A DNA stretch of 64,000 nucleotides from a virus: positions 25,856-89,855 of the IMG/VR virus record IMGVR_UViG_3300010401_000001. One strand, 5' to 3'. The stretch's first letter is position 1; each line of letters begins with the position of its first letter. Made by a program: the position numbers and the translations under genes. The notes beneath the pieces were generated by a model that saw only the letters and a program-made list of their open reading frames with translations, was not told the DNA's origin and did no database searches. Of the stretch, positions 236-18,997 are shown piece by piece.

Positions 236-567
236 CCGCGCTCGACGCATTCCTGAGCGTTGCGCCGCTCATCGACGACCATCGCGATGAAGCCGCGCGC
301 GTCTGCGAAGAGACCGCCCGCTATGAGCGCGGCGAGCGCCAGCCGTTGCGGCTCGACCCGAACGATATCTCCAACCACGAGTTCAGCGACGCCGCCGCGG
401 GCATCGCCGCCGAGGTCGCGATGGAGGTCAGCGACGCCTTGAAGGCTGCGCGCGTGCGTTGCCCGCCGGCCGACGTGTGGGCCATGGCCGCGAGGCTCCT
501 CCGCTCGGGCTGGCAGCGCGGTCACCGGCTTCAGCCGATTGTGACCGGACGAGGAGCACCATCATGA
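232..567 (+). CDS. hypothetical protein
   Basis: ORF coupled by ATGA overlaps at both ends. Confidence 0.6.
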   Translation: MTALDAFLSVAPLIDDHRDEAARVCEETARYERGERQPLRLDPNDISNHEFSDAAAGIAAEVAMEVSDALKAARVRCPPADVWAMAARLLRSGWQRGHRLQPIVTGRGAPS

Positions 568-941
568 GCGATCTTGTTGCCCACATCAACCGCATCCACC
601 GAGACCTCCGCGACGGCGCCTTCTATACGCTCACCGCCGCCGCGCCCGGCTACACGACCATCACCGCACGCGATGCCGATGGCGACACCTCCACGCCATG
701 CCTGGACCGCGCCGACGTTCGCCGGCCGATCGAAGACCTCGAGCAGATCGCCGGACTTGTTCCGAGCGCGCCGGCTGTCGGACGCGCCGCGGCGCTCGCC
801 GGATCGGTGCGGCGCATCTTCGATCTGCTCGGCGAGATCGAGAAGACGGACGGCGCCGCCGCCGATGAGATCGTCGCCGCCATCGCGGCGCACCTGCGTT
901 CGTGGCGCCCGCTGGCGCTTGCTCCCGGAGGCGTGCTGTGA
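564..941 (+). CDS. hypothetical protein
   Basis: GAGGAG RBS, ATG at 564 (MSDLVAHINRIHRD). Confidence 0.6.
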   Translation: MSDLVAHINRIHRDLRDGAFYTLTAAAPGYTTITARDADGDTSTPCLDRADVRRPIEDLEQIAGLVPSAPAVGRAAALAGSVRRIFDLLGEIEKTDGAAADEIVAAIAAHLRSWRPLALAPGGVL

Positions 942-1005
942 TGGCAGTCGTTGCGCTGGCGCTGCTCGGTGCCGTCTACGCGATGCGCCGGGCGTTGAGG
1001 TCGGC

Positions 1006-1443
1006 ATGAGTGGACAGCCGAGCATCAACGTGGCGGCCCGCGCTCATCTCGCCGTCGTGCTGCTCGAGACCACGCCGGCAACGGTCGCAGCTGTCGCTGA
1101 CCTCGTCCGTATTAGCGAGTGCCAAGTGTATCGCGCCTGGCGCGCCGCTCACCCTGAGCGCCCGCCGCGTGGCCGGCGGATCACCGAGGCGATGCGCGCG
1201 GCGCAGATCGAGCCGTTCGCCGCGCTCTGCGACGTGATGGTCGCGCAGCTGACGGATCGCCCGCAGCGAGCCGCGCAGATCTTCGCCGCAACGCGCGCGC
1301 TGCATGGAGATGTCGGAGATCGCCGGCTATGGCGAGCGCTACGCCGGCTGGTCGACACCCTGAGAGTGGCACGCCATGGCATGCGCTGCACCGGAGCAAC
1401 GTACACAAGGATCATAAACGGAGGTGGCATTTGCGAGCGTTGA
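1006..1443 (+). CDS. hypothetical protein, possible HTH DNA-binding
   Basis: TVAAVADLVRISECQVYRAW resembles a helix-turn-helix. Confidence 0.5.
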   Translation: MSGQPSINVAARAHLAVVLLETTPATVAAVADLVRISECQVYRAWRAAHPERPPRGRRITEAMRAAQIEPFAALCDVMVAQLTDRPQRAAQIFAATRALHGDVGDRRLWRALRRLVDTLRVARHGMRCTGATYTRIINGGGICER

Positions 1444-1943
1444 CACTCACTCAGCCATGGGCGGGTCTCGTCGCGTCCGGGATCAAGCGCGTTGAGAACC
1501 GGCCCCGCGCGATGATCAAGCGCACCGACTTTGGAGCGCTGTTCGCGATCCACGCGAGCCGCGAGATCGATTCGGCGGTGTACTCACGAATCCGCGACCT
1601 GGCGCCTGAACTTTTCCGCGGGCCAGGTTGCGCTGAGATTCGCACCGAGATGCCGTGGTATGCGCTGTCCAGGGTGACGAGCGCCGTGATCGGCGTGGCA
1701 CGCATCGACAAGGTGCTCGAAGGCGGCTGGAACGCCGAGTCGATTCGGGAGTTCGCGGACACGATCAGCTTCTCGGATGGATCGCTGCTCGGCCATGAAC
1801 AGCTGCGTTGGTTCTTTGGCCCCGTCGGTTACCTGACGCGCGAAGCGGTCGCCATCGCTAAACCGGTCCCGTGTCGCGGCCAGCTCGGGTTCTGGACCTT
1901 GCCGGATGACGTGTGCAATTCGGTAACTGCGCAGCTTGGTTAA
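1431..1943 (+). CDS. ASCH domain protein
   Basis: ALTLTQPWAGLVASGIKRVENR...IHAS...PVPCRGQLGFW; GGAGG RBS before TTG. Confidence 0.85.
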   Translation: MRALTLTQPWAGLVASGIKRVENRPRAMIKRTDFGALFAIHASREIDSAVYSRIRDLAPELFRGPGCAEIRTEMPWYALSRVTSAVIGVARIDKVLEGGWNAESIREFADTISFSDGSLLGHEQLRWFFGPVGYLTREAVAIAKPVPCRGQLGFWTLPDDVCNSVTAQLG

Positions 1944-1945
1944 GT

Positions 1946-2197
1946 ATGAACTATATGAACCATATTAAACACATCACTCTGCCAGACGGTTGGTCCATCG
2001 AAAGCGAAGATGCGTCCACTGTCGTGATCAAGGCTACAAAACTCCTTTTAGTTACGGTTGACTTGAATATGCGGGTGTATCGAGCAGATTTCGCAACCAC
2101 CGGGCGACCTCTCATCCCGAAGTCGTACGGAGGAAGAGGATGGAGAGACGAACTGATCGCCGACGCCATTACGTGGCTGAAAGGCATTGCCAAGTGA
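1946..2197 (+). CDS. hypothetical protein (lower GC)
   Basis: ORF in operon context. Confidence 0.55.
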   Translation: MNYMNHIKHITLPDGWSIESEDASTVVIKATKLLLVTVDLNMRVYRADFATTGRPLIPKSYGGRGWRDELIADAITWLKGIAK

Positions 2198-2520
2198 CTC
2201 CAACGCAATCCCAGACCTTCGCGATGCTCGCGCTCGACCGCGGGGCATCACCGGAACACCTGCCGCCGCGCACGCGCAGGTCGCTTCTGCAGTGCGGGTG
2301 GATCGACCGCGTATCGCGGATCCTGAACGACGCTGGCCGCGACGCGATGCTCAGGTCGTCGCACTTCTCGGCCGCGCTCAAGGAACTCGACGCCGCCGGC
2401 GACCCCGACAAGGCTCTCGCGCTCCGGGTCATCGTCACCGGAAGTTCGCTGGAGACGCGGCAGCGGAACCGGCGCCGGGCCGCGATCGCCAGCGCGGCGA
2501 TGCGGATGGCGGCGCGATGA
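2194..2520 (+). CDS. hypothetical protein
   Basis: GTGA coupling. Confidence 0.5.
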   Translation: MTPTQSQTFAMLALDRGASPEHLPPRTRRSLLQCGWIDRVSRILNDAGRDAMLRSSHFSAALKELDAAGDPDKALALRVIVTGSSLETRQRNRRRAAIASAAMRMAAR

Positions 2521-2795
2521 TCCTGGCCTGGCTCCTGGTCCGCGCGTCCGCCCGGCTGCTGGTCGCGATCGCTGATGACCTGCTGGTGATCGCCCGCCTG
2601 AAGTGGCGAGACTCTATGGGAGGCGCGAAGTGGCGATGGTCGCGAGAGCGGATCGCCTGGTGGGCGGTATGCATTGTTCCGCATGCTGTCGCTCGATGGT
2701 TGATGTGGGGCGGTGGCGAGCGAATCCCGCTGCCAGCCAGCTGGGTCCCGTACCTGTTCGGGCGCGCGCTCGGCGTCGAAGGGCGCAGGCGATGA
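2517..2795 (+). CDS. hypothetical hydrophobic, Trp-rich protein
   Basis: ATGA coupling. Confidence 0.5.
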   Translation: MILAWLLVRASARLLVAIADDLLVIARLKWRDSMGGAKWRWSRERIAWWAVCIVPHAVARWLMWGGGERIPLPASWVPYLFGRALGVEGRRR

Positions 2796-2956
2796 CCAGA
2801 GAAGAAGCGAAACGCAAGCTACACGAAGCGCTGGCGAGCGATGACCCAGAGAAGAACCACAAGGATGCCGACGATGTGCTGTGCGCGTTGTTGGTTTCGT
2901 TGGGATACGGAGACGTGGTTGAGCTGTACCAGCGATTGGAGAGGTGGTACGCATGA
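2792..2956 (+). CDS. small conserved phage protein
   Basis: HKDADDVLCALLVSLGYGDVVELY...WYA motif. Confidence 0.7.
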   Translation: MTREEAKRKLHEALASDDPEKNHKDADDVLCALLVSLGYGDVVELYQRLERWYA

Positions 2957-3693
2957 CCGCGCCACGCGAGCGAGGGATCATCTTCAGCGCGCCGATGGTG
3001 CGAGCCATATTAGAAGGTCGCAAGATGCAGACTAGGCGCGTGCTGACGCCGCAACCACTTTACACGCCGAGTTCAGGGCTGATTTGGAATGGTGTCGCGT
3101 ACGGTGTGACGACTGACGGTCGACCATTTACAGGAACGATCGTAAATAAGTGCCCGCATGGCAGGCCGGGAGATCGAATGTGGGTCCGCGAGACGTGGAC
3201 CCACGACGCGCCAGACCTCGAGACGTGTCGTGCTGCCTATGAGGATGCGAGTCCTGGTATCGGCTACGGTCCGTACTACCGCGCCACCGAGGTCGCTCAA
3301 GATACGCTGAAATGGCGACCAGCGATCTTCATGCCGCGCTGGGCATCTCGCATTACGCTCGAGATCGCCAAGGTGCGCGTTCAGCGCCTGCAGGAGATCA
3401 GCGATGACGACGCGCGGGCAGAGGGCGTCGATCCGTACACGCCGCCGACCGGTCATATCTCGCCGGACCAGCGCGTCCCAGGGCCGGGATTCGAAAACTG
3501 CCGGCTCGGCGACCAACCGCACCGGCTACCGTTCGCTGACCTATGGGACTCCATCAACGGCAATCCGCGCGCCATGCTCGACGACGACGGCAATCCCGTG
3601 CTCGACGATAACGAGCGCCCGATTATGCACCCACCGAAGTCGTGGGCGAGCAATCCTTGGGTGTTTGCGATCACTTTTCGGAGGATCCAATGA
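2953..3693 (+). CDS. ASCH/PUA-like phage protein
   Basis: IIFSAPMVRAILEGRKMQTRR...MWVRETW...MPRWASRITLEI...NPWV. Confidence 0.85.
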   Translation: MTAPRERGIIFSAPMVRAILEGRKMQTRRVLTPQPLYTPSSGLIWNGVAYGVTTDGRPFTGTIVNKCPHGRPGDRMWVRETWTHDAPDLETCRAAYEDASPGIGYGPYYRATEVAQDTLKWRPAIFMPRWASRITLEIAKVRVQRLQEISDDDARAEGVDPYTPPTGHISPDQRVPGPGFENCRLGDQPHRLPFADLWDSINGNPRAMLDDDGNPVLDDNERPIMHPPKSWASNPWVFAITFRRIQ

Positions 3694-4441: not shown

Positions 4442-4882
4442 ATGACCCCGTCAACTCAAGTGAGCCGCTTCCTCGACACCGCCGCCGCCGCGGTCTACCT
4501 CGGGTTCCGCACCCGGGCAGGGATCCGCTCGCTGGTCTACTCGGGCGAGCTCGTACCCGACGGTCGCGGCTACCGAGGCGGCTACGTGTTCCTACCCGAG
4601 ACGCTTGACGCGTGGACCCGCTCCCGCATGGAGTCGATGCATGGACGACGAGGGCATCAAGCAGCTCGGCAAGAACCTGTGGGCGGTCCGCGTCAAGCGG
4701 ATCAGCGCGGCGACGGGCAAGACGGTGAACCGCAAGGCGACGGTGAGCGGGAGCAAGGCCGACGCGCGGCGCAAGCGCGACGAGCTTCGCGCGGAGCTCG
4801 CCTCAACGCAGGCGGCGCGACCGCGGACGCAGCTCAGGTCATACGCGACATCGTGGCTCGGGCGCAGAGCCGACGACCCTGA
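4442..4882 (+). CDS. xis: excisionase-like HTH protein (3' part overlaps int)
   Basis: LDTAAAAVYLG...IRSLVYSGEL...LDAW MerR/Xis-like HTH directly upstream of the integrase. Confidence 0.7.
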   Translation: MTPSTQVSRFLDTAAAAVYLGFRTRAGIRSLVYSGELVPDGRGYRGGYVFLPETLDAWTRSRMESMHGRRGHQAARQEPVGGPRQADQRGDGQDGEPQGDGEREQGRRAAQARRASRGARLNAGGATADAAQVIRDIVARAQSRRP

Positions 4883-5747
4883 GACGAAGGCGACCACGGT
4901 CCGCAAGTATGGCTACGGGCTCCAGCACATCCTACCCGTGCTCGGCGACCTGTACCTGGACGCGATCGCGCCGGCGGACATCGAGCGCTACGTCGCGTTC
5001 CGCATGCGCCAGGTCGGCCTCAAGGGCGGCAACACCGTGCTCAACGAGCTGCGGCTGCTGCGCACGCTCGCGCATGATGCGCACCGCAACGGCTACTGCG
5101 ACCGGGTCTGGACCGACGGCGTGCGCCAGCCCAGAGTCCGCGAGTACGACGAGACCAGGCCGAACCTGCTGACCGGCGAGCAGTGCGACCGGCTCCTCGC
5201 CGCGATCCCGACGCAGTGGCGCGCGCTGGTTCTGTTCCTGGTCACCACCGGCCTGCGGTTCGGCGAGGCGTCGGCGCTGCACTGGGAGGACGTCTCGGGC
5301 GGGCAGGCGACGATCCGGTACACCAACGACCGTGGCAGGCTGACGACCGTCAAGACGCACAAGAGCCTGCGCCGCGTGCCGATGCTGCCCGTGGTGATGG
5401 AGCTGCTCACCGTCAAGTCGAGCGGGCTGGTGTTCCCGTCGCGGAAAGGGACGCTGCACAAAGGGTCGCCGCTGAAGAAGGTGCTCGACGCGGCGTGCGC
5501 GGCGGTGTTCGGGCCGGGCGGGCTGCGCGTTACGGCGCACGGGATGCGCAGGACGTTCAATAACGAGGGCCGCTTGGTTGCGAGCACGCTGGTGCTGCAG
5601 TCGATCACCGGCCACGCCACGGACGCGATGACCGCGCACTACTCGATGGTCGGCGCCGAGGAGAAGGCGGCGGTGAGTCGGGCGGTCGCGGAGCGGGTCG
5701 GGGCGGTGGAAGGCGCGGCGAGGAAGGGGCCAGAGCAGGTGAACTGA
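4641..5747 (+). CDS. int: tyrosine integrase
   Basis: TGLRFGEASALHWEDV, HGMRRT, GH...MTAHY catalytic R-HxxR-H-Y. Confidence 0.95.
   Translation: MDDEGIKQLGKNLWAVRVKRISAATGKTVNRKATVSGSKADARRKRDELRAELASTQAARPRTQLRSYATSWLGRRADDPETKATTVRKYGYGLQHILPVLGDLYLDAIAPADIERYVAFRMRQVGLKGGNTVLNELRLLRTLAHDAHRNGYCDRVWTDGVRQPRVREYDETRPNLLTGEQCDRLLAAIPTQWRALVLFLVTTGLRFGEASALHWEDVSGGQATIRYTNDRGRLTTVKTHKSLRRVPMLPVVMELLTVKSSGLVFPSRKGTLHKGSPLKKVLDAACAAVFGPGGLRVTAHGMRRTFNNEGRLVASTLVLQSITGHATDAMTAHYSMVGAEEKAAVSRAVAERVGAVEGAARKGPEQVN

Positions 5748-11709: not shown

Positions 11710-11713
<4 letters not shown>
11480..11713 (+). CDS. Ead/Ea22-like small protein
   Basis: DLDDLE...PVTIALIARIRELE. Confidence 0.55.
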
Positions 11714-15117
<3,404 letters not shown>

Positions 15118-15127
15118 GGTAGGGTAA

Positions 15128-15301
15128 ATGATGAAGCAAAAACCGAAACAAAAACTAGCACTTCGACACGAAACCATCCGCCAGCTGGAGGCGCTCGACC
15201 TGCGCCGCGCCGTCGGTGGTGACGGCGCGCCGCTGGCGTTCGACACCGGGCAGATCCACTGTGGGACGAGCGTCGCGGCAGCGACGGCCGGCGGAGGGTG
15301 A
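15128..15301 (+). CDS. 57-aa double-glycine leader peptide precursor (below ORF-track cutoff)
   Basis: MMKQKPKQKLALRHETIRQLEALDLRRAVGG|DGAPLAFDTGQIHCGTSVAAATAGGG. Confidence 0.75.
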   Translation: MMKQKPKQKLALRHETIRQLEALDLRRAVGGDGAPLAFDTGQIHCGTSVAAATAGGG

Positions 15302-15312
15302 GGCATCGACCG

Positions 15313-15364
15313 ATCTAAATTCGCCATGCGAAACTTGTTGACATTTCGCATGGCGAATTTAGAT
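15313..15364. repeat. perfect 21-bp inverted repeat with 10-nt loop
   Basis: ATCTAAATTCGCCATGCGAAA-CTTGTTGACA-TTTCGCATGGCGAATTTAGAT. Confidence 0.95.
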
Positions 15365-15365
15365 T
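15338..15365 (+). promoter_or_regulatory. sigma70-type promoter embedded in the inverted repeat
   Basis: TTGACA-N16-TAGATT-N6-ATG(15372). Confidence 0.7.
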
Positions 15366-15371
15366 AAGGGA

Positions 15372-15830
15372 ATGACGAACACGAACGCCGGTACCACCGT
15401 AAATGAGTCCACGATTGCCCGCGTAGCGAAGTACATCGCCCAACCGTACGGCGCCCTTTGGGCGTCCATCGCCCACGATCTCGTCGGGGCCCGTCTCTCC
15501 GAGGTCGCAGCCGAGCTTATGGATTCCGCCGAGGGCGATCCCGACCCCGATGTCAGCGCGACCTGGCGCGCCTGCGCGTTCGTGTTAGCCGAGGATGCGC
15601 GTCAGGCGGCTCCGACGCAACCCGTGGCGCGCGGGCTGGCTGACGTTGCGCAGATCGTCGGCGAGGTCAGCGTGGTCGCCGGCGCGGCACGCTGGGCCGC
15701 CGGTGCAGTCGCACTCCACGTCCGCCGCGCCCTCGACCGGCGCCGCCAGGAGCAACTCGCCGGTATCGAGCCGAGCTCGCTGATCGAGCTTGACGAAGTT
15801 CCCACGGCTGGCAAGCAGGTGTCGCGATGA
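15372..15830 (+). CDS. hypothetical protein
   Basis: ORF right after the promoter. Confidence 0.6.
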   Translation: MTNTNAGTTVNESTIARVAKYIAQPYGALWASIAHDLVGARLSEVAAELMDSAEGDPDPDVSATWRACAFVLAEDARQAAPTQPVARGLADVAQIVGEVSVVAGAARWAAGAVALHVRRALDRRRQEQLAGIEPSSLIELDEVPTAGKQVSR

Positions 15831-17044
15831 TCGCCGTCGACGCCGCGCGTGGCATGCACGTCGGAGAATTGCGCCGTCTCCGCGATGACCCGGTCGCGCG
15901 CCGACAGGTCGAGCTCCGTGATGCCGGAACGGACATCGTGCTCGGCGTGCTCGACGGACTTGGCTACCGCTACAGTGGCACCGGCGGCTGGCACATCACC
16001 GCGTACGCCACGCCCGAGCATATGCTCGGGCTCGTGAATATCGCCAAGGGGATCGCGGTGCTCACGTCCGTGCCACTTGATTCGCACATCGTCGAGGCGT
16101 TGACCGTACCGGCTCAGGCCACCGGACCGCAGGTGAGTGGCGCCGCGGCGTGGACATCGCCCGACGCCGGCGAGGGGCACCGGGCGAGCGCTCCCGAGGG
16201 ATGGGTGCAGCTGTTCGTCGACGTGAGAGCCTCAGCTCGTGGGGAGCCCTACACCGCCGCGCGGCGAACGCCGGCGCCGCGGATCACCTGCCGGGCTCGC
16301 GTCGTGCGATGGGGGCTGGCCACGTGCTACGAGGGCCGGCCCGGCGACCCTGGGCCGCGGTCCCTTGCGCCGCGGGAAGGCGACGAGCTGGAGCCATTCG
16401 CCGACTGGCCACTGGACCGCGAGATCCGCCGGCGAATGGCCGCCGTAGCCGATGACCGCCTCCGCGCGCTGGCTAGGCGACTCGCCGTCGTCGCTGGAGT
16501 TGATCTGGAGCCGTACCTCGCGCGGCCGCACTCGCCGGGTCTGTCCAGTGCCTGGCGCGCGGCTGCGCTCCCATACCACCCGTTAGGATACGCCGGGGCG
16601 CGCGACGTCGCGACCTCGGTCACGTCCGCCGCGCCACATCGCCTGCTCCGCGAGCACGGCGTCACGTGGTGCGCAGCCTGGGAGACGAACCATGTGGCCG
16701 GGGCGAGCTACCACAGCCTGCTCGAGCAGCTACTGCGGCGCATCCTCGTGCAGCGCCTCGAGCCGATCGCCGCGGCGATCCGCGAACAGCTCGAACCGCT
16801 CAGCGACATGACGCCGGCGCCCGGCCAGCAGGAGCACATGCCGCTGCATGCGCTGCACGCCGCGATGGAGCCTGCGGTCGCCGCGTCGATCGATCCGATC
16901 GCCAAGCGGCTGCTCGGCTACTTCGACTTAGATACTAGGAAAATGACCAGGCCGGTGCGCGCCGAGCTGCTGGCGATCTACTACTCAGCCGGGCCGGTCG
17001 TTGTCGACATCCCGCACGACCAGTCCGGCCGGAGGGATTCGTGA
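15827..17044 (+). CDS. hypothetical protein (405 aa)
   Basis: ATGA-coupled long ORF. Confidence 0.6.
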   Translation: MIAVDAARGMHVGELRRLRDDPVARRQVELRDAGTDIVLGVLDGLGYRYSGTGGWHITAYATPEHMLGLVNIAKGIAVLTSVPLDSHIVEALTVPAQATGPQVSGAAAWTSPDAGEGHRASAPEGWVQLFVDVRASARGEPYTAARRTPAPRITCRARVVRWGLATCYEGRPGDPGPRSLAPREGDELEPFADWPLDREIRRRMAAVADDRLRALARRLAVVAGVDLEPYLARPHSPGLSSAWRAAALPYHPLGYAGARDVATSVTSAAPHRLLREHGVTWCAAWETNHVAGASYHSLLEQLLRRILVQRLEPIAAAIREQLEPLSDMTPAPGQQEHMPLHALHAAMEPAVAASIDPIAKRLLGYFDLDTRKMTRPVRAELLAIYYSAGPVVVDIPHDQSGRRDS

Positions 17045-17382
17045 GCTACGGGGCCCGCGTCGACGCGTTGCTTGACCGCCTCGGCGGCGACCTCACCGAG
17101 GCGGACTTTCGCGCGCTCGCGCTGGCCTGCATCGACCAGGCTGGCGTAGGCACGCGAGACCAGGATGCAATCCGTGGGATCCTGCAGGCGGATGCCTTCG
17201 CGCGGGATGCGATCGCCGCTCGGATCGCCGACCTCGATACTATTGATCCGGCGCCGGGCTGGGAGGACCGCGCGGTCGCCCGGGCGCGTCGCGAGGGCGT
17301 GCTGCGACCGGTCGCCACATGCGCGCTCTGCAGCCGCGATGACGGCCGCCACGAGCCGGGCTGCGAGGCGCCGCTGGTATGA
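17041..17382 (+). CDS. hypothetical protein, C-terminal CxxC..H..C
   Basis: Coupled ORF. Confidence 0.55.
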   Translation: MSYGARVDALLDRLGGDLTEADFRALALACIDQAGVGTRDQDAIRGILQADAFARDAIAARIADLDTIDPAPGWEDRAVARARREGVLRPVATCALCSRDDGRHEPGCEAPLV

Positions 17383-17753
17383 CTCGCCGAATCACACCAT
17401 GGACGCTCTACGCGAGCGTCGAGCTCCCATCTCACTGGATCGGCACGGATAAGTCCAAAGCGCTCTATCAGTGGCCGCGGTCTGGCAAGTGGTCGCAGCG
17501 CGAGCTGTACTCCGGACACCTGCCCGACCTGTATCCGGTCGCCGCCGCACTCGCCCGCGGCACAGGGTGGCCAGGGGCCGGCGTTGGCCGGCGCCGATCG
17601 GCCGGCGATGTCTCCGGCACGAACCGCACGATCCGCATCCCTGACCGCGACTGGAAGGCGATCGGCGACATCGCCGAGCGGCAAGGACAGCAGACCAGCG
17701 AGACCGTGCGCGAGGCCATCAAGCTGGCGATCGCCCGCGGCAGTACGCGGTAA
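17379..17753 (+). CDS. protein with C-terminal ribbon-helix-helix
   Basis: NRTIRIPDRDWKAIGDIAERQGQQTSETVREAI. Confidence 0.7.
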   Translation: MTRRITPWTLYASVELPSHWIGTDKSKALYQWPRSGKWSQRELYSGHLPDLYPVAAALARGTGWPGAGVGRRRSAGDVSGTNRTIRIPDRDWKAIGDIAERQGQQTSETVREAIKLAIARGSTR

Positions 17754-18605
17754 TCACCGGGCCGGAACGTCGCGCCACCGCGCTATGCCGAGCAGCCGGG
17801 CACGAGCCAGCGAGGCCGGGCCCACGAAGCCATCGGTGACGAGCGGCGAGTTCGTCAGCCCGCGCCGGCTCGCCTCGGCGTTCAGCCATGTTTGCCGCGC
17901 GCGACCAATGTGAAGGTCCTCGTCGGCCGAGTAGTCGAGCGCCTCGGCCCCGCGCGCGTGGAGCGCTCCGTAGATGGCATCTCCCGGATCGCCGCGGCCG
18001 CGCGCGCTGGTATTGTCGCGATGGCCGAACACGCCGACGCAGTCCGGGCCCCCGAGGTTGTGCCGATGCCCGCCGTCGCTCACCTCCATGCGGAGCAGCG
18101 GCGCGTTGCGGTACGGCGCGCAATGGAACTGGAACGGGATGCCGATGGCGTCGCAGAGCCCGGCGGCGATGAGCGCCGTGGCGTCGATCGTCGCCTGGCG
18201 GATCGCGCCGTCCTTGGCCACGAACATCTCGATCCCGACGCTCCAATCGTTGCTGCCCTCGGCGTGGTAGGCGCACGTGTACGCCAGGTCGCATAGGCAC
18301 ACGACCGTGCCGGCGCTGTCGACGAGGGCCTGCGCCGCGCTCGAGGTCGGATCCGTGCGCCAGATGTCGGCGTATCGCGCCGCTTCGCCGCCGGGCCCCG
18401 CGCCGGGTACGACGTGCTGATCATCGCCGGTGACGCTGTGGATGATGACCTGGCGTACCCACAGCGTCTTGCGCGGCCGGTAGTCGCGGATGTCGAGGTA
18501 CGCCCAGTCCGGACCGTTGCCGGGCGGCAGCCGCGGCGGGATCACGGTGACACCGGTGACGGGAACGATCAGGCCGGCAATGAGCAGGCCGCCGGAGGTC
18601 GTCAT
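17754..18605 (-). CDS. endolysin, N-acetylmuramoyl-L-alanine amidase
   Basis: IIHSVTG, YHAEGSNDWSVGIE, GHRD...DPG; C-terminal DGFVGP peptidoglycan-binding-like motif. Confidence 0.85.
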   Translation of the reverse strand: MTTSGGLLIAGLIVPVTGVTVIPPRLPPGNGPDWAYLDIRDYRPRKTLWVRQVIIHSVTGDDQHVVPGAGPGGEAARYADIWRTDPTSSAAQALVDSAGTVVCLCDLAYTCAYHAEGSNDWSVGIEMFVAKDGAIRQATIDATALIAAGLCDAIGIPFQFHCAPYRNAPLLRMEVSDGGHRHNLGGPDCVGVFGHRDNTSARGRGDPGDAIYGALHARGAEALDYSADEDLHIGRARQTWLNAEASRRGLTNSPLVTDGFVGPASLARARLLGIARWRDVPAR

Positions 18606-18997
18606 TTGCTGTCTCCGCAGAACACGATCTGCCCGTTCTGGATGAAGCCGTGAAACGCGCAGAAATGGCTCTCGTTGAGGTACTCGGGTAGCGCGCCGGC
18701 GGCGAGCGCGGCTTCGCGGCTCGCGTAGGTCGGGATCCTCCGGATGCTCGGCGACAGCGTCAGCGTCTCGAACGTGTCTCCGGTGCGCTGCCAGACCGCG
18801 CCGTTCTGCTGCCACCCCGGGGTCGGCGAGCCGTCGAACGCCGGGGAGAACGGGATCACGTGCGAGCAGCCCTCGTGTCCCTCAGGGCAGTCGAAGTGCA
18901 CGCCGCGCGGTACGTCGTCACCTGCCGGCTGGCCGGCATACCGCCCGGTCACCCACCGCGGGTGGCAGTCGACCAGCCGCGTTAGGCGCTCGCTCAC
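18602..18997 (-). CDS. DUF6527-like Cys/His protein
   Basis: FDCP...C...TLSPSI...CAFHGFIQNG. Confidence 0.6.
   Translation of the reverse strand: MSERLTRLVDCHPRWVTGRYAGQPAGDDVPRGVHFDCPEGHEGCSHVIPFSPAFDGSPTPGWQQNGAVWQRTGDTFETLTLSPSIRRIPTYASREAALAAGALPEYLNESHFCAFHGFIQNGQIVFCGDSK

Follow-up and report, generated by a model that had tools for sequence, protein, structure and literature searches.

The small ORF at 15128-15301(+) is a real gene for a lanthipeptide-style precursor peptide, and is the conserved partner of the Ser/Thr kinase gene that lies just upstream of it. This kinase-peptide pair is a module of Kofleriaceae (Myxococcota) genomes, in which it occurs in many copies, and the single copy carried here by a probably temperate soil phage was most likely captured from its host. 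The sequence analysed, hereafter the window, is a 64,000-nt stretch comprising bases 25856-89855 of a complete 89,855-bp IMG/VR virus record, which has 123-bp direct terminal repeats and a G+C content of 67%.

What the initial annotation observed in the sequence is confirmed. The ORF is present and encodes 57 aa, or 56 aa if translation starts at the second ATG (15131), with a TGA stop codon at 15299-15301. The leader (15128-15220(+), residues 1-31) consists of a basic N terminus (MMKQKPKQK), a KLALRHETIRQL stretch of the KLxLRxETIRxL type, and then LDLRRAVGG, with AVGG ending at residue 31. The 26-aa core (15221-15298(+), residues 32-57) has one Cys (C45), plus T40, T47, S48 and T53, and displays the family motif D-T-G-Q-I-H-C, in which Thr40 and Cys45 are spaced i to i+5, as well as a Gly-rich C terminus. 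Two details of the initial description need correcting, however. The gene is not ‘hidden’, since the 56-aa version is already found in public protein catalogues and the ESM Atlas holds the 57-aa sequence. Furthermore, the NCBIfam class I lanthipeptide leader model NF038153 (lant_leader_L1a) aligns over its whole 32 positions but matches only below threshold, at 13.9 bits (E 0.045) against a cut-off of 22.

Comparison with a sister phage contig (L003, syntenic and about 93% identical at the nucleotide level) shows that the ORF is kept at 88% amino-acid identity. The leader carries five synonymous and two conservative replacement changes (dN 0.029, dS 0.259, dN/dS about 0.11), while the core has five replaced codons (dN 0.147, dS 0.125) with the Cys retained. 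A leader under purifying selection joined to a core that changes freely is the usual pattern for RiPP precursors, although with one comparison the numbers are small. Stronger evidence comes from homologues. A phmmer search of 1.8 billion representatives gave eight hits at E<=1e-3, and a profile search built from these found 70 clusters, all of them unnamed metagenome proteins of 50-89 aa. They share the leader MKKxxxKLVLRxxTLRxLxxxDLxRAVGG and a core with one or two copies of [DE]-[ST]-G-x3-C. The [DE][ST]...C motif is present in 65 of the 70, the Ser/Thr-to-Cys distance is 5 in 83 of 94 motif copies, and 27 members also have a Cys in the last four residues. The GG motif is kept in nearly all members, and the Cys is invariant in two alignments of the peptide. 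The phage core has lost the C-terminal Thr-x-x-Cys and the second motif copy that many bacterial members have. The absence of a homologous leader family had been named beforehand as grounds for rejecting the precursor interpretation, and this condition is not fulfilled. Pfam and PHROGs gave no hit for the peptide, and an alignment-based scan of genome contigs likewise returned nothing.

The upstream partner gene (11710-15117(+)) encodes a 1135-aa protein whose GTG start overlaps the preceding stop codon (GTGA). It carries a Hanks-type Ser/Thr kinase domain with intact VVVK, HRDIKPAN, DFG and APE motifs (Pfam Pkinase, PHROG 2361), followed by an Arg-rich stretch (RRRRR) and one predicted transmembrane helix (12823-12879(+), residues 371-389 numbered from 11713), which is the highest-scoring 19-aa Kyte-Doolittle window in the protein (2.15). 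About 740 aa of helical region and WD40 repeats (Pfam WD40) follow, and this presumed extracytoplasmic region (12883-15114(+)) contains an invariant Cys pair (C809, C826). An equivalent Arg-rich plus hydrophobic segment is present in 12 of 12 aligned orthologues, although the topology is inferred from hydropathy and the positive-inside rule only. We considered whether the kinase could be a class III/IV lanthipeptide synthetase (LanKC/LanL), which would fuse the kinase to a phospho-Ser/Thr lyase and a LanC-like cyclase domain, and rejected this. NF038150 scores 75 bits against a cut-off of 650 and NF038151 scores 38 against 575, with only the kinase domain matching, no LanC-like match exists anywhere in the phage, and the rest of the protein is a predicted membrane helix and WD40 repeats.

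The peptide gene starts 10 nt after the kinase stop codon TAG, with the spacer GGTAGGGTAA at 15118-15127(+), and the same 10-nt spacing is found in L003. All four metagenome loci found with the peptide family (L004-L007) have an orthologous kinase directly upstream. Searching with the kinase gave colinear orthologues at 41-46% identity only in Kofleriaceae and unclassified ‘Deltaproteobacteria’ MAGs (loci L009-L020), and in all nine of these loci where sequence downstream of the kinase gene is present, the peptide follows on the same strand. The MAG locus that holds P0065, a peptide of the phage-like subfamily (L131), shows the same arrangement, so that together with locus L030 the pair was seen in 15 of 15 bacterial loci first examined. 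In 11 of 13 bacterial loci where both ends could be read, the peptide start overlaps the kinase stop (ATGA, TAATG or TGATG). Bacterial kinase orthologues (L004-L006, L010-L015, L017 and L019) end in a conserved tail, C-x6-C-A-I-V (usually R-C-A-I-V), whose last codons overlap the peptide start, while the two phage kinases lack this tail and have the spacer instead.

The pair is strongly expanded in these bacteria. Five Kofleriaceae MAGs of 9-12.7 Mb have 15-37 matches to the peptide profile each. Of the 30 best loci, 27 have enough upstream sequence to judge, and in 22 of these the C-terminal WD40 part of an orthologous kinase ends within a few hundred bases upstream on the same strand, and within 10 nt in most. 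The five loci without a kinase have Thr/Cys-rich cores of the classical lanthipeptide kind. One kinase is followed by three tandem, closely related peptide genes (about 2182-2731 of contig C604 in MAG G005), whose cores contain AFDTG/ALDTG...C, the variant closest to the phage motif. At another locus (L007, 5790-6106) two further leader-like ORFs follow the first peptide, the last of which has lost both the GG motif and the core motif and looks degenerate. In a sample of 300 other genomes of the same phylum none matched at E<=1e-4, while within the family 23 of 121 matched at E<=1e-6; as these are samples of incomplete genomes, the absence applies to those searched. A scan of IMG/VR with the kinase found no other viral contig with a close orthologue.

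Several features tie the peptide to class I lanthipeptides. Among 46 related peptides, 14 match NF038153 at E<=0.1, with a best E value of 2.1e-6, and the nearest ESM Atlas clusters are class I lanthipeptide leader families at a score of 0.89, which we regard as a lead only. In more distant loci of the same bacterial group, peptides with this leader sit beside full-length LanB (L023, L025, L045), beside LanC-like genes (L021, L042, L046) and beside FHA/sigma-54 activators (nine loci). They also sit beside a second kinase architecture (L021, L024, L030, L033, L036 and others), in which a Ser/Thr kinase is fused to an nSTAND1 NTPase and WD40 repeats (about 1800 aa, no membrane helix noted). In the five MAGs, LanB clusters carry precursors with the same style of leader and Thr/Cys-rich cores (L113, L115). 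The leader is thus the local class I lanthipeptide leader, and the fixed Ser/Thr-to-Cys spacing of the kinase-linked family fits one (methyl)lanthionine ring per motif. The hydrophobic residues at -4, -7, -12 and -15 (A28, L25, L20 and I17) and the acidic residue at -8 (D24) relative to the G30-G31 site also fit the consensus of double-glycine leaders that are cut and exported by C39-peptidase ABC transporters (PCATs).

The complete phage genome has no LanB, LanC-like, C39-peptidase or FHA match, and the LanC-like model used also covers the cyclase domains of LanM, LanKC and LanL. Around 12 bacterial pairs, no biosynthetic or export gene is present within about 6 kb. The only recurrent neighbour is an FHA-domain protein with an AAA+ lid remnant, found in five of the 12 closely related bacterial loci scanned (L006, L007, L009-L017, L019, L020). 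In L006 a 921-aa protein with a formylglycine-generating-enzyme (FGE-sulfatase) domain (268-3030) lies about 3.6 kb upstream of the pair, but was seen only once. Elsewhere in their genomes, the five host-type MAGs each have 2-7 LanB, 3-6 LanC-like and 5-8 C39-peptidase matches. Maturation would therefore have to work in trans, one enzyme set serving many scattered precursors, an arrangement that exists for prochlorosins.

The interpretation offered in the initial annotation is only partly supported. A RiPP-type precursor with a lanthipeptide-type double-glycine leader, on a phage without maturation or export genes, is upheld, and given the enzymes found in host-type genomes, borrowing from the host is the natural reading. 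By contrast, the peptide is not an orphan but the downstream half of a conserved operon, a link to the kinase that had not been drawn. The suggestion of a separate leaderless transcript from TAGGGT-N7-ATG is not supported either. The TAGGGT (15115-15120) does sit 7 nt before the ATG but overlaps the kinase stop codon, and a promoter scan found no sigma-70-like site upstream. The only promoter-like site (near-consensus, sigma-70-like TTGACA-16-TAGATT, 15338-15365) lies after the peptide gene and faces the next gene (15372). It is embedded in a perfect 20-bp inverted repeat (15314-15363) that starts 12 nt after the peptide stop codon, occurs only here in the window and is predicted to form an RNA hairpin of -36.3 kcal/mol (z -7.6). 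The repeat is conserved in L003 apart from one loop base, which weakens the -35 box, and one inserted T. A search for sequencing runs listed six soil or rhizosphere DNA runs and no RNA, and one further contig spans the stretch at about 88% identity with the same inserted T at 15357. The repeat is a likely end of the kinase-peptide transcript, an operator, or both, and co-transcription with the kinase is the simpler reading.

We propose the following explanation, which we hold to be somewhat more likely than not for an exported, kinase-coupled precursor. Our analysis establishes that the gene is real, that it forms a conserved two-gene operon with the kinase, that this module is expanded in Kofleriaceae and was confined to that lineage in our searches, that the phage carries one copy, and that host-type genomes possess the maturation genes that the phage lacks. 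Everything beyond gene and operon conservation, including modification, cleavage, export and binding, is inferred from sequence. Best supported among these inferences is that the leader is cut after Gly31 and the core exported by a host peptidase-containing ABC transporter. Next in support is that host LanB and LanC dehydrate Thr40 and link it to Cys45 to give one methyllanthionine ring. Least supported is that the mature peptide works together with the kinase, most likely as ligand of its presumed extracytoplasmic WD40 region, so that the pair would be a self-contained signal and receptor. In bacteria the output would pass through the FHA-domain protein that often sits next to the pair, whereas the phage kinase would have to feed into host partners. 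We favour this reading because the pair is inherited and translated as a unit, the peptide keeps export features and the kinase has the build of a receptor, yet we hold the ligand step by itself to be less likely than not. The presumed ectodomain is at least as conserved among paralogues (58-63% identity) as the kinase domain (51%), while the peptide cores vary outside the motif, which is not what a diversifying ligand-receptor pair would show, though the conserved motif could be what is recognised. The more distant STAND-type relatives look like cytoplasmic regulators of lanthipeptide clusters, and this fits a regulator of peptide production as well as it fits a receptor. A predicted complex of the presumed ectodomain (residues 391-1134) with the peptide returned a score of 0.01 and no answer, and weighs neither way. 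A search for sigma-54-type promoters upstream of 11 bacterial kinase genes and the phage kinase found none, and the idea of an FHA-activator feedback loop on the operon promoter was dropped.

Of the alternatives, an antimicrobial lanthipeptide (bacteriocin) that the prophage gives its lysogen as a weapon, with the kinase regulating only production or immunity and not sensing the peptide, survives best but appears unlikely. The leader type is shared with classical Thr/Cys-rich precursors next to LanB and LanC, related STK-STAND-WD40 kinases and FHA/sigma-54 activators sit beside LanB/LanC clusters as apparent regulators, and phages are reported to carry bacteriocin-type genes (bioRxiv 10.1101/2020.10.01.322628). 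However, the core is short, Ala/Gly-rich and has a single possible ring, unlike the multi-ring cores next to LanB, and no immunity or transporter gene accompanies the pair. Moreover, most of the best-scoring leader-family matches in each genome are tied one-to-one to a kinase by overlapping stop and start codons, which is not how bacteriocin structural genes are usually arranged. Slightly less likely still is a peptide that stays in the cytoplasm as a substrate, pseudo-substrate or docking regulator of the kinase domain, with the D-[ST]-G site as phospho-acceptor and the ‘leader’ merely a binding helix. The one-to-one translational coupling, the fixed Asp-x-Gly context of the conserved Ser/Thr and the recurrent FHA neighbour, a domain that binds phospho-threonine, would fit. 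On the other hand, a cytoplasmic substrate would not need the double-glycine motif and export-type leader pattern kept across the family, the invariant Cys at a fixed distance points to a ring rather than a simple phosphosite, and most members have Ser rather than Thr (67 against 19) whereas FHA domains prefer phospho-Thr. The original proposal of an orphan precursor on its own transcript, borrowing host enzymes or mimicking and competing with host peptides, is very unlikely; the host does make many similar peptides with which it could compete and has the enzymes that the phage lacks, but the kinase is adjacent in both phages and in almost all bacterial loci, no upstream promoter-like site was found, and the start is coupled to the kinase stop in bacterial relatives. 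A chance frame, or one belonging to the antisense 94-aa ORF (15067-15351, minus strand), is effectively refuted by the 70 homologous clusters and the coupling to the kinase stop: although the ORF is short and substitution counts by codon position cannot separate two frames whose third positions coincide, the antisense ORF would run through the palindrome and the spacer and no family is known for it.

The peptide displays individual features of several known systems. It shares with class I lanthipeptide precursors (LanA) of the NF038153 type the basic N terminus, the KLxLxxETxRxL helix, the GG end and a Ser/Thr placed a few residues before Cys, but it falls below the model's cut-off, has a kinase rather than LanB or LanC nearby, and its Ala/Gly-rich core has a conserved Asp-Ser/Thr-Gly context with only one possible ring in the phage copy. 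A GG-leader peptide is likewise encoded next to a membrane kinase in the double-glycine pheromone systems ComC/ComD and BlpC/BlpH of streptococci (PMC7595303), in which the exporter can be encoded elsewhere and signal and sensor would be co-expressed; judged by gene order, our pair meets this requirement of co-inheritance and co-expression. Here, however, the kinase is a Hanks-type Ser/Thr kinase with one predicted membrane helix and a large WD40 region rather than a polytopic histidine kinase, the peptide is probably ring-modified, and binding is inferred. In lantibiotic autoinduction a lanthipeptide, nisin, likewise signals to a membrane kinase of the same gene set (NisK/NisR), but through a two-component system, whereas the present pair is separated from the biosynthetic genes and occurs in many copies per genome. 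Mycobacterium tuberculosis PknD, a receptor Ser/Thr kinase with an extracellular β-propeller, has the kinase domain, single membrane helix and propeller sensor that are predicted here, and NCBIfam PRK13184 (PknD) matches the kinase part of the phage protein, although PknD has an NHL propeller instead of WD40 repeats and no dedicated peptide gene. The phage arbitrium system (AimP/AimR) also places a small secreted-peptide gene and a sensor gene on a temperate phage, but AimP has a Sec signal and is sensed inside the cell by a TPR transcription factor; the present peptide has no hydrophobic signal sequence, its partner is a kinase with a predicted membrane helix, and any link to the lysis-lysogeny decision is speculative.

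While lanthipeptide-type precursors and GG peptides next to receptor kinases are both known, in a limited literature search, which is no proof of absence, we found no description of the coupling to a Hanks-type kinase with WD40 repeats, of its expansion in Kofleriaceae or of its presence on a phage. If our reading holds, lanthipeptide-type peptides would be tied to eukaryote-like Ser/Thr receptor kinases rather than to histidine kinases, a large, lineage-specific family of signal-receptor pairs would exist in an uncultured group of myxobacteria, and this would be an example of a phage carrying both halves of such a pair while relying on the host for peptide maturation. It also gives testable material, with cores of about 26 aa, a defined cleavage site, one predicted ring and a defined putative receptor domain. 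In a more speculative model, which the evidence allows but which we consider less likely than not, the pairs would constitute a so far undescribed peptide-signalling system of Kofleriaceae, in which a ring-modified, GG-leader peptide is sensed outside the cell by the WD40 region of its own Hanks-type receptor kinase, expanded to many distinct pairs perhaps for kin or neighbour recognition in these social bacteria. The phage would then use its captured pair as a private communication channel, for example to sense other lysogens or infected cells and to steer host signalling or its own lysis-lysogeny choice.

The phage has a tyrosine integrase (4605-5747) and is hence probably temperate, and the kinase orthologues and peptide family point, by inference, to a Kofleriaceae host. 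The pair ends a plus-strand block of small genes. Beyond the palindrome lie two genes (15372-17044; 152 aa and 405 aa) without any match in Pfam, NCBIfam or PHROGs, followed by an Arc-like repressor candidate (17379-17753) and, on the minus strand, an Amidase_2 endolysin (17754-18815) and a DUF6527 protein (18602-18997).
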